Positions 18,911-39,165 of a DNA stretch of 64,000 nucleotides are shown here, one piece after another. Both the position numbers and the translations under genes were made by a program. Position 1 is the stretch's first letter. The number at the start of each line of letters is the position of its first letter. The stretch is from Dictyostelium discoideum (taxonomy: Eukaryota), in NCBI GenBank assembly GCA_000004695.1, contig CM000152.2, positions 2,560,001-2,624,000 on the forward strand, written 5' to 3'. The notes under the pieces were generated by a model. The model saw only the letters and a list, made by a program, of their open reading frames with translations. It was not told the DNA's origin and ran no database searches.

Positions 18911-21892
18911 ATGTACAATTCATTTCAAGAAAGGCAACCAAATACTGACAATATAATCAGTGCAAAATTGAAATTGAATGAATTCTTTTTAACTTATTTA
19001 TCCCAGAGTGAAACTACACAATATATTCATGATTTACTCAATGGTATAAGTCAATCATCTGGTCAAAGTTCAAAGTCAACTCCTTCTTCACCTTCAACTT
19101 CACCATATAAACAACCTTATCCTTTCTTAAATAGTAATAATAACAATAATAATAATAATAATAATAATAATAATAATAATAATAATAACAATAATAATAG
19201 TGCATCAATAACAATACCAATCCAATTTTCATTGGGTGAATCAACCAATGATAATTCAAATGAAAATAATAGCTCATTGAAATCTGATATAAAAATGGAT
19301 GAAGACGAATGTAATAATAATGATAATACTATTAATAATAATGAAAATAATAATAATAATAATAATAATAATAATAATAATAATAATAATAATAATAATA
19401 ATAATAATAATAATAATAATATCTATACAAAAGATGAATCACATGAATCATCATCATCAGAGGTTGTAACTTCACAAATAGCAACCTCAACATCTTCACC
19501 TCAAAAAGAAATAAAAGAACAAAATGATAAAGAGAAAGAAAAAGGCAAAGAGATTGAAAATGAAGATGAAAATGAAAATGAAAATAAAAATGAAAATAAA
19601 AATGAAAATAAAAATGAAAATGAGAAAGAGAAAGAAAAAGAGGAAAAAGAGTTGGGATTAAAAAAAGAAAAAGAGGAAAAAGAAAAACAAGAGAAGGAGG
19701 AGGAAAAACAAGAGACTACTACCACCACCACCACTTCAACCACTATATCATCAGATGATAAAACTGTAAATAACATATCACCAAATAAAAACAACAATAA
19801 TAATAGTAAAAAATTAAAAAGCGAAGATGGATGTGTTATCATTCAGTGTGATGATAACAATAATATTGAAACAACATCATCATCATCATCAACAAACAAT
19901 ATAGAATTACCAAAGATACCACAATTTTATTTCCCAAAAAGTAGAGCAATAAATGATAAATTAGAAACTAGTATATTTACAATTAAAAATAGATTTCAAA
20001 CTTTTAAATCAATTGATATGAATCAACAATCATGTACTAATATCCCCGCAAAATATATCTCCTCATTTGATGAATTTGAAGTTTTAATTAAAGATTTACA
20101 TTCTTTCCCAAGAATTTTAAATAGACTTTTATTCATTTACACTTTAAAACAATTAAAATTAATTGATGCAATTTATATACCTCAAGATGCATTCATAGAG
20201 TAAGTGGTTGTTTAAAAATTCAATTGAAAATATGAGAATAATAAAAAATTGTATCAAAAAAGGTGTTTTGGATTTGTGTGGGAGTGACACTTTTTTTAAT
20301 TTTTTTATTTTTTTTTACTATCCAAAACACCTTTTTTTTTTTTGGGAGTCGCACAAAAATAAAAGTAAAAAAAAAAAAGAAAAGAAGCAACAATACTAGC
20401 GTCGCATAAAAAAAAAGAGGCGACAAATACTAGCGTCGCATAAAATTACTTTTCACCACTTTAATGTTGAAATTATTACACCCGACCACCAAATTTTTTA
20501 TTTTTCACAAATAAAAAATAATTTCTAATACTTTTTTTTTTTTTTTTTTTTTTAATAATTAGGTTTTGGAAAACATATATTTATGGTAAAGATGCAGAAG
20601 ATTTACTATTTAATATTTTAAAGAAATCTGAAGATTCAAACTTTTTATTTTATGAAGATTTTTTCTTATTTTCAAAAAGTAATTATTAAATTTTTTATTA
20701 TTATTATTTTTTATAAACCAATTATTAATACTATTATTATTGTTTTAAAAATTAAAGCATTGATCGATTTTCATCCAGGTTTAGAATTTTTATCAAATAC
20801 ACCAGAGTTTCAAGATAGATATCAAGAAACAATTATTATTAGAATATTTTATGGAACTTGTAGAAATAGAGGTAGAATTACCGCAAAGGATCTAAAAACA
20901 AATAACTTTATTAGATCATTAAGTTTATTAGATGCTGAACCTGATATAAATAAGGTAAATTTTTCTTTTCAAATTTTAATTTAGAAATTAATATCATATT
21001 AATTATATATTTTTTTTTTTTTTTTTTTTTAAAAATTAATTTTAGCATTTAGAATATTTTTCATATGAACATTTTTATGTTATTTATTGTAAATTTTGGG
21101 AATTGGATATGGATCATGATCTCTTCATTGATAGTAATGATTTAGCAAAATATGGAAGTTGTAGTTTAACTCCATTAATCATTGAAAGAATTATTGCAAA
21201 TTCAATATTTACCAAACCTTTATTTGGTATTAGAAATAAAATTTCTTATCAAGATTTTGTTTGTAAGTTATTTATTTAATTATTATTATTATCATTATTA
21301 TTTTAAATTAATTAATTTTATTTTATTTTATTTTTTATTTTTATTTATTTTTTTTTACTATTTAGGGTTTATATTATCAGAAGAAGATAAAACAAGTGAA
21401 ACTAGTATTGAATTTTGGTTTAGTTGTTGTGATTTAGATTGTGATGGATTTTTAAGTTTATATGAAATGGATACATTTTATAAGGAACAAAAGCAGAGAT
21501 TAGATTATTTGAATTTAGATCCCCCAGTATTTAAGGATCTTTTATGTCAAATCTTGGATATGATTAAACCAGAGGCAATTGAAAAGATTACATTGTTGGA
21601 TTTAAAGAGTTCAAAAATGGCTGGTTATTTATTCAATGTATTATTTAATATCAATAAATTCTTACAACAAGAATCAAAAGAATCAATCACTTGTAATCAA
21701 CCAATGAGCGATTGGAATAGATTTGCTTTACAAGAATATGAAAGAGCTTTGGCCGAAGAATCACTCTCTTATCAAGACGATGAAGACGATCAAAATGATG
21801 ACCAAGATGATGACGACCAAGATGATGACGATCAAGATGGTCATCACCATAATCAATATCATCATCAAGATAATAGAATGTTAATAGGTTAA
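18911..21892 (+). CDS. Protein phosphatase 2A regulatory subunit B'' (PR72/PR130-like, EF-hand). Exons 18911-20199, 20563-20678, 20758-20964, 21046-21262, 21366-21892.
   Basis: Exons 3-5 align almost residue-for-residue with PR72: HPGLEFLSNTPEFQDRYQETIIIRIFY; YFSYEHFYVIYCKFWELDMDHDLFID; SYQDFV|WFILSEEDKTSETSIEFWFSCCDLDCDGFLSLYEMDTFYKEQ; ITLLDLK. Splice junctions restore codons exactly (e.g. T|GG=Trp). The N-terminus has long poly-N and ENK/EKE repeats. The acidic tail is DDQDDDDQ. Confidence 0.85.
20258..20345 (-). other. Conserved ~85-nt element, copy 1 (in intron 1 of the PP2A B'' gene): a 12-bp inverted repeat flanking an A-rich loop, with a DUSE-like core CTCCCACACAAATCCAAAACACCTT
   Basis: The minus strand reads AAAAAAGGTGTTTTGG..A-rich ~45 nt..GTGTCACTCCCACACAAATCCAAAACACCTTTTTT. 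Compare copy 2 at 39085-39165. Confidence 0.5.
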
Positions 21893-22185
21893 AAAAAAAA
21901 TAATAAAAAAAAATAATAAAAAAAAAAAAAAATATATAAAGTATATTTATATAAACATATACATTAAATATATACATATAATTATCAACTTTTTTTTTTT
22001 TTAAAAAAAAAAATAAATAAATAAATAACAAAAACTATTTAAAATTTTATTTAATTTAAACTTTAAAAAAAAATAAAAAAAATTAATTATTAAGAAATAA
22101 AAAAAAATAAAAAAATATTTATTTATAAAATTATTTAATTTTACAACATTTTATTTTATTTTATTTTATTTTAGTTTTAATATTT

Positions 22186-22632
22186 TTATATTATTAAAAT
22201 TAAAGTTATTACAAACAATAATAATATTAATGATGATGGTAATAGTTTAAAAGATGAAGAATCAACGAATGATTGATAACACATTGCATTGAATACACCA
22301 TAGTCTGTTATATTGGTATCTATTACATTATTACAATTAAATATTAATTGAGTGAATTGAGTTGAACAATCATTACTGTGGTCATAAAGATTTAAATTAA
22401 ATTGTCCAGTTAAATTTGATCTTTTTTCAATTTTAAAACTTCCAGTTTCACAAATTCCACTTGAGGTTGAACAAGAATCTAATGATACATCATAAACTTT
22501 GGATAAGCATTTCTTAATATTAATATCAAATGTTGTAAATTCTAGTGTTTCAATTGATTGTACAAATTGATTTTCTTGGAATATTATAAAAATAAAAAAT
22601 AATATTATAACTATTAAATTTTTAAAATACAT
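22186..22632 (-). CDS. Small secreted Cys-rich protein with an N-terminal signal peptide and C-terminal hydrophobic GPI-anchor-like segment (ponticulin-like architecture)
   Basis: 148-aa single-exon ORF. The hydrophobic N-terminus is MYFKNLIVIILFFIFIIF and the hydrophobic C-terminus is LLPSSLILLLFVITLILII, with multiple Cys between. Similarity to the ponticulin family is suggested by architecture only. Confidence 0.5.
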   Translation of the reverse strand: MYFKNLIVIILFFIFIIFQENQFVQSIETLEFTTFDINIKKCLSKVYDVSLDSCSTSSGICETGSFKIEKRSNLTGQFNLNLYDHSNDCSTQFTQLIFNCNNVIDTNITDYGVFNAMCYQSFVDSSSFKLLPSSLILLLFVITLILII

Positions 22633-38998: not shown

Positions 38999-39084
38999 AA
39001 AAAAAAAAAAAAAAAAAAAAAAAAAAAATCTAAAAAAAAAAAAAAAAAAAAAACAATGAAAAGTAAAAAATTTTTAGGTGCTGG

Positions 39085-39165
39085 TAAAAAAGGGGTTTTG
39101 GTCAATAAAAAAAATAAAAAAAAAAAGAAAAAAAAATGTTCCCACAAATCCAAAACACCTTAATT
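39085..39165 (+). other. Conserved ~85-nt element, copy 2 (intergenic between IVD and the DUF1295 gene)
   Basis: The plus strand reads AAAAAAGGGGTTTTGG..A-rich ~40 nt..TGTTCCCACAAATCCAAAACACCTTAATTTTT. The TCCCACAA core equals the Dictyostelium upstream sequence element (DUSE) consensus [AT]CCCA[CT]AA. Confidence 0.5.

Follow-up and report, generated by a model that had tools for sequence, protein, structure and literature searches.

Two short homologous sequences in a 64-kb stretch of the Dictyostelium discoideum genome (positions 2,560,001 to 2,624,000 of contig CM000152.2, assembly GCA_000004695.1; called here the window and numbered from its first nucleotide) are probably copies of one short, non-coding and decaying element, non-autonomous and resembling miniature inverted-repeat transposable elements (MITEs), which inserted after D. 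discoideum split from its closest sister taxa. One of them, copy A, is found in a PP2A B''-type EF-hand gene, within the intron that separates exons 1 and 2; the other, copy B, is intergenic and occupies the spacer that divides an isovaleryl-CoA dehydrogenase gene from the 3' end of a DUF1295 gene. A first-pass annotation of the window had noticed both, on account of an inverted repeat and a motif resembling the Dictyostelium upstream sequence element (DUSE) of small-RNA genes, and had offered two readings: promoters of unannotated genes for small non-coding RNAs (ncRNAs), or a short dispersed repeat. The second is borne out by the homology of the two insertions and by the empty sites found in relatives, whereas the first is not, and the likeness of the element to a small-RNA promoter motif looks accidental.

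The similarity between the copies is well above chance. Both sequences, each ~105 nt long, share one inverted-repeat layout, which in the core of copy A (read on the minus strand from 20356 to 20250) runs GTGCGACTCCCA, an A run, GGTGTTTTGGAT, an A-rich spacer of ~45 nt, GTGTCACTCCCACACAA, ATCCAAAACACC and TTTTTTGATACA, and ends in a GATACA terminus 3' of the right arm; copy B has the same layout on the plus strand. General repeat finding and self-BLAST of the window were dominated by A/T low complexity, and GC-filtered k-mers and composition-weighted alignment were used instead. With a composition-weighted matrix, chosen because the genome is ~78% A+T, the local alignment of copy A with copy B scores 58-65, against a mean of 17-18 (sd ~2.2) for shuffled sequences, while nhmmer returns E-values of 3.8e-24 for the core of copy A and 4.1e-23 for copy B. 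The 21-mer CCCACAAATCCAAAACACCTT, searched with up to three mismatches, matches only 20260-20280 (minus strand, one mismatch) and 39141-39161 (plus strand, none), and finds nothing in 100 dinucleotide-preserving shuffles. In a GC-filtered k-mer self-comparison of the 64-kb window, the two copies and the further repeats noted in the intron of copy A are the sole non-coding repeats outside low complexity. The common architecture that had been described is thus real, and the homology is longer than was thought. It reaches 20250 and 20509 in copy A and ~39057 in copy B: the distal 30 nt of copy A, TGTGAAAAATAAAAAATTTGGTGGTCGGGT, align to the left part of copy B, TGAAAAGTAAAAAATTTTTAGGTGCTGGT (39057-39085; the alignment covers 39057-39088 of the window), with a score of 21.2 versus 12.2 +/- 1.4 for shuffled sequences, which none of 500 shuffles equals. 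The copies differ by many substitutions and indels, so that neither is a recent direct copy of the other.

That copy A is an insertion emerges from comparison with 'Dictyostelium cf. discoideum' (GCA_054859205), whose PP2A B'' orthologue lies in locus L001. The intron of copy A spans 363 nt (20200-20562), as unusually long as had been claimed, and its orthologue in L001 measures 77 nt and is without 20250-20509, with window positions 20101-20250 and 20507-20650 aligning to adjoining L001 sequence at 90-92% identity. Exactly at both boundaries of copy A stands a 10-bp direct repeat, AATAAAAAAT, which is present as a single copy in the empty site of L001. Judged from the sequence, such a pattern is what a target-site duplication classically leaves behind. 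Among random 260-nt segments of the window, 38 of 63,710 positions (6e-4) have a 10-mer repeated on the two sides, and so do 37 of the 2,723 (~1.4%) whose flanks consist of nothing but A and T. In the more distant outgroup D. purpureum, the intron at the same position is ~78 nt long and is also without the element, which makes a gain in D. discoideum more parsimonious than a loss elsewhere. Since the boundaries of copy A were set independently, from the empty site, and the homology with copy B reaches both of them, the homologous segment and the inserted segment are one and the same. The base composition of the block is likewise set apart from its surroundings, with 25-38% GC where ordinary introns nearby have 7-12%. 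Another D. discoideum assembly (GCA_054883475), one chromosome of which is 99.54% identical to the window over 20.3 kb, carries an identical copy A.

The internal structure of copy A is more elaborate than that of copy B. Its two arms form a perfect 18-bp stem, which folds at -22.2 kcal/mol (z = -4.6); the perfect pairing that had been reported is confirmed, the reported length of 12 bp is not. An expansion of ~120 nt, which has no counterpart in copy B, separates the core from the distal terminus and contains a 34-nt tandem duplication, so that TACTAGCGTCGCATAAAA is found twice, 34 nt apart (20394-20411 and 20428-20445), together with GTGCGAC/GCTAGTA motifs. With GGGAGTGACAC at 20280 and GGGAGTCGCAC at 20344, all of the additional GC-rich repeats that had been listed for this intron could be located.

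Some features of the L001 locus deserve mention in their own right. Public annotation splits the PP2A B'' orthologue (8315-11205) into two models of 469 and 314 amino acids (aa), the second of which begins at an artefactual Met (MKALIDF...). Upstream of it, L001 carries an annotated 151-aa single-exon gene (5791-6246) with no tblastn match in the 64-kb window, which, by this comparison, is a presence/absence difference between the two lineages.

Copy B was followed in nine other assemblies, from which the corresponding spacer was taken via the isovaleryl-CoA dehydrogenase orthologues. It is present in three D. discoideum assemblies, that of the window, GCA_054859355 (L003) and GCA_054859385 (L014), and absent from the same spacer in six assemblies of sister taxa: D. 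cf. discoideum GCA_054859205 (L004) and GCA_054859235 (L015), D. firmibasis (L005), D. citrinum (L006 and L007) and D. dimigraforme (L016). In L003 and L014 the copy is more complete, and continues after CACC with TTTTTTT(G/A)TTTGACACCC(T/C), in parallel to TTTTTTGATACA of copy A, from which it follows that the window's copy B has lost 18 nt at its right end. The fuller copy of L014 (9800-9932) has terminal inverted repeats. Its left end, GGTG-CTAGTAAAAAAAAGGGTTTTTTGG, agrees with the right end, which in reverse complement reads GGTGTCAAATAAAAAAAAGGGTGTTTTGG, in 25 of 29 positions (z = 11.5; none of 300 shuffles reaches the score), and the copy folds as a 27-bp stem (z = -5.3). The arms of the window's copy B show one mismatch in their 12-nt core, just as had been noted, and this copy folds like shuffled sequence (z = -0.1), so that the stem-loop proposed for both loci folds convincingly in copy A and not in the window's copy B. 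Good folding of copy A and of the fuller B copies is what is expected of inverted termini; if the element is a MITE-like insertion, the stem of 12-18 bp is the inner part of a terminal inverted repeat rather than an RNA structure under selection.

Copy B gives no indication of purifying selection and diverges faster than its flanks: identity among the three D. discoideum assemblies is 83-93% within the copy versus 93-97% in the flanks, and its DUSE-like core and arms vary from one assembly to another. The units are also short and non-coding (260 bp for copy A, ~105-130 bp for copy B), with only short low-complexity open reading frames (ORFs) overlapping them. The features of both loci are listed in Table 1.

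Table 1. Features of copies A and B in the window, with their coordinates and strand.
Feature	Position	Strand	Remarks
Copy A, full block, 260 bp	20250..20509	-	Within a PP2A B'' intron of 363 nt
Copy A, core unit, homologous to copy B	20250..20356	-	From alignments and nhmmer
Copy A, left arm AAAAAAGGTGTTTTGGAT	20320..20337	-	Read as 20337-20320
Copy A, right arm ATCCAAAACACCTTTTTT	20256..20273	-	Perfect reverse complement of the left arm
Copy A, internal expansion	20357..20479	-	~120 nt, with a 34-nt tandem duplication; copy A only, no counterpart in copy B
Copy A, distal terminus TGTGAAAAATAAAAAATTTGGTGGTCGGGT	20480..20509	-	Homologous to the left end of copy B
Copy A, DUSE-like 8-mer TCCCACAC	20276..20283	-	7/8 consensus positions ([AT]CCCA[AT]AA, PMC3188802)
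Target-site duplication AATAAAAAAT, copy 1	20240..20249	.	Abuts the insert directly
Target-site duplication AATAAAAAAT, copy 2	20510..20519	.	Other boundary of the insert
Copy B	39057..39161	+	Upstream (92-196 nt) of the start codon of the isovaleryl-CoA dehydrogenase gene (minus strand, ATG at 38965)
Copy B, left arm AAAAAAGGGGTTTTGG	39086..39101	+	
Copy B, right arm ATCCAAAACACCTT	39148..39161	+	
Copy B, exact DUSE-like 8-mer TCCCACAA	39140..39147	+	In this assembly only

The surroundings of copy B offer observations of their own. A block at 39277-39318, TAATCTATTGCTGATGTAATATTTATTATAATGGTTTTTCATA, is kept in D. discoideum, D. cf. discoideum and D. citrinum, with or without copy B, and carries AATAAA on the minus strand ~110-150 nt beyond the stop codon of the DUF1295 gene; it is probably the 3'-end processing signal of that gene. 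In the isovaleryl-CoA dehydrogenase gene, an intron (~38280-38430) consists of a near-pure A/T repeat, which appears as poly-Tyr in the ORF translation and is 86% identical over 156 nt to 59468-59623, a similarity of low complexity only.

How the element came to its present state can be outlined conditionally. Its termini, which bear GGTG, an A run and GG(T/G)GTTTTGG, would have been recognised by a transposase supplied in trans, and a staggered cut at an A/T-rich target would have left the 10-bp duplication at copy A. One copy would thereby have come to lie in the PP2A B'' intron, and the second in the spacer near the promoter of the isovaleryl-CoA dehydrogenase gene, both sites being AT-rich and non-coding, after which each copy would have decayed neutrally and in its own way. 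Copy A would have gained its ~120-nt internal expansion, including the 34-nt tandem duplication, whereas copy B, in the lineage of the window, would have lost (i) the 18 nt of its right terminus and (ii) 2 nt whose removal may have created, by accident, the exact DUSE look-alike TCCCACAA.

Much of this is what one would expect of a MITE: small size, the lack of an ORF, inverted termini (copy B), an AT-rich non-coding target, a flanking duplication (copy A), presence or absence at orthologous sites of close relatives, and internal tandem expansion and terminal deletions that are particular to each copy. Mutator-like elements make duplications of 9-11 bp, with which 10 bp would fit, and we know of no Mutator-like elements described in D. 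discoideum. Several points nevertheless weigh against a MITE-like origin. Only two copies are seen here, and a profile built from four copies finds no additional one, whether in the 64 kb of the window or in the ~190 kb covered by the sister-species loci. Outside its perfect 18-bp inner repeat, copy A shows only weak inversion at its extreme ends (z = 1.1 to 2.5). The boundaries of copy B, and with them its target-site duplication, are ambiguous, since one model yields an 8-bp duplication, AAATTTTT, and the other, which homology to copy A favours, yields none. No autonomous transposase partner or superfamily is assigned to the element. Finally, a deletion between 10-bp direct repeats leaves the same footprint as an insertion, and at copy A it is the outgroups alone that speak otherwise. 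Searches further afield returned nothing related: a metagenome scan with a 19-mer gave five matches, every one in unrelated contigs that are not AT-rich and hence chance, a scan of prokaryote genomes gave five bacterial matches, also chance, and a literature search for its sequence string found only unrelated primers. The element would be, at most, a new small family in a genome with few described DNA transposons.

The idea that the two loci hold DUSE promoters, or promoter and hairpin modules, of unannotated small ncRNA genes, one in the PP2A B'' intron and the other upstream of isovaleryl-CoA dehydrogenase, is easily understood. The DUSE is an 8-mer, [AT]CCCA[CT]AA or [AT]CCCA[AT]AA, which lies ~60-63 nt upstream of the ncRNA start or of a TGTG box, AAATGTG (PMC7919456; PMC3188802), and copy B contains an 8-nt string, TCCCACAA, that fits the first form exactly. 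Copy A, for which the same core had been claimed, reads TCCCACAC-AA at this site, and it has a second DUSE-like 8-mer, TCCCAAAA, at 20340-20347, so that two CCCA motifs stand 64 nt apart in a manner resembling the ~60-nt spacing between a DUSE and the TGTG box or start (PMC7919456). T runs reminiscent of RNA polymerase III terminators are found 3' of the arms, and the hairpin of copy A is stable. The motif itself, however, is neither enriched nor conserved. TCCCAYAA occurs six times in the window with 5.0 expected, that is, at chance frequency, and the exact 8-mer is confined to one of the D. discoideum assemblies, L014 having GTCCCACACAAATCC (that is, TCCCACAC, as in copy A) and L003 GTCTCGCACAAATCC (that is, TCTCGCAC). 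As both of these and copy A differ from it, the perfect TCCCACAA is most simply a derived 2-nt deletion in one lineage.

Nor is there an RNA gene where such promoters would place one. The only Rfam match at gathering threshold in the whole window is a tRNA-His, and permissive thresholds yield only sub-threshold noise at the two element loci. Class I RNA genes are recognised by a conserved 11-nt motif, CCTTACAGCAA, beside a short terminal stem, and a search of the entire window for the Class I motif CTTACAGC found nothing. About 60 nt downstream of the cores there is no RNA family, Class I motif or GC-rich segment: this position is an A/T run for copy B, and for copy A the predicted start falls outside the inserted block, in the intron/exon flank and antisense to the end of exon 1. 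Shuffled sequence folds as well as the hairpin of the window's copy B, sequence change in the element outpaces that in its flanks, and the element is missing in its entirety from sister species that do possess DUSE-driven ncRNAs. We therefore regard promoters of small ncRNA genes as very unlikely. A variant that would combine both readings is equally hard to credit, namely that the copies belong to an uncatalogued, D. discoideum-specific MITE family with DUSE-like CCCA motifs and T-run terminators, whose insertions could seed DUSE-driven or antisense small transcripts; were it true, it would provide a route for the multiplication and dispersal of DUSE-dependent ncRNA genes. A hairpin of the miRNA or mirtron type, for which an uninterrupted stem of at least ~20 bp, a small loop and conservation would be expected, was also rejected, the structure being a stem of 12-18 bp around an A-rich loop of ~45 nt, with a window copy B that folds like shuffled sequence; the best matches to Rfam miRNA models reach ~15-19 bits, against thresholds of 53-95.

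Other ways of spreading a short sequence have to be set against a MITE-like insertion. The two copies might stem from a one-off templated event, filler DNA acquired during double-strand-break repair, by which one locus was copied from the other or both from a third, leaving two or three copies in all. This would account for the finding of only two loci in the window and the sister-species loci, for the weakly inverted outer termini of copy A and for the similar flanks by the right ends of A and B, A(T/A)TTTTTATTATT. It sits badly with the clean 10-bp duplication that borders copy A exactly and points to a staggered cut, with an intact copy B that has 29-nt terminal inverted repeats, and with the many substitutions and indels between the copies, and we consider it unlikely. 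We find it somewhat less plausible still that the copies are fragments or solo termini of a catalogued D. discoideum transposon, be it a solo long terminal repeat (LTR) or an end of DDT, Tdd or Thug, as in the case that the first-pass annotation itself named as refuting its proposal, a known transposon terminus. Copy A starts with TGT and ends with ACA, as LTRs do. Target duplications made by LTR integrases are typically 4-6 bp, which the 10 bp found here exceed, and copy B is a shorter, self-contained unit with inverted termini of its own (29 nt); a solo LTR was set aside on these grounds. Dictyostelid LTRs do include lengths like the 260 bp of copy A, and DGLT-A solo LTRs are described upstream of tRNA genes (PMC5006619), of which the window has only one, at 63273-63344.

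As for the DNA transposons of D. discoideum, which include the Tdd, DDT and Thug families (Glockner et al. 2001, as cited in PMC5633606), the element would resemble them in being of class II, in the same genome and with inverted termini. They are described as longer, and Thug-S, whose hairpins yield small RNAs (PMC4894637, PMC6161686), contains an intron (PMC4894637). An origin as a short interspersed nuclear element (SINE) or another non-LTR retroposon was rejected because no A-rich tail abuts the target duplication at either end: the ends of the insert read ...TTTTTCACA and ...TTTTTTGATACA, without a terminal A tail on either strand, which argues against an origin of the SINE type or of the type of long interspersed nuclear elements.

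A third occurrence had been suggested at 23054-23072, in the form of GTCGCACAAAATAAAG. The string is actually at 23060-23075, in a block that resembles the element only marginally (a level equalled by 3-6 of 500 shuffles), which, together with 98.75% conservation in a sister taxon, places this block outside the family. The sequence around it is of some interest in itself. GTCGCACAAAATAAAG is carried by a GC-richer intergenic block of ~160 bp (22990-23150), which is 98.75% identical to positions 12305-12464 of the D. cf. discoideum locus L001, whereas nearby non-coding DNA such as the intron flanks is ~90-92% identical. Rfam finds no match in the block and folding shows no signal; the block is situated 370-530 bp upstream of a 148-aa ORF of secreted type (22186-22632) that adjoins the PP2A gene and for which a look-up found no record. 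Towards the far end of the window, a tandem duplication of ~4.9 kb with 78% identity (53385-58288 and 58078-63065), presumably a pair of paralogous genes, is followed directly by the tRNA-His gene.

In conclusion, the two insertions have consequences that lie mainly in annotation. That of copy A accounts for a PP2A B'' intron ~5 times as long as its orthologues and for the GC-rich islands in it, and copy B, from its position so close to the ATG, could in principle alter the promoter of the isovaleryl-CoA dehydrogenase gene. An 8-nt match to the DUSE that falls within a repeat should not be taken for an ncRNA promoter. Should the family turn out to have many copies, it would be a small non-autonomous addition to the short list of D. 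discoideum DNA transposons, and would provide presence/absence markers separating D. discoideum from the 'cf. discoideum' lineages.

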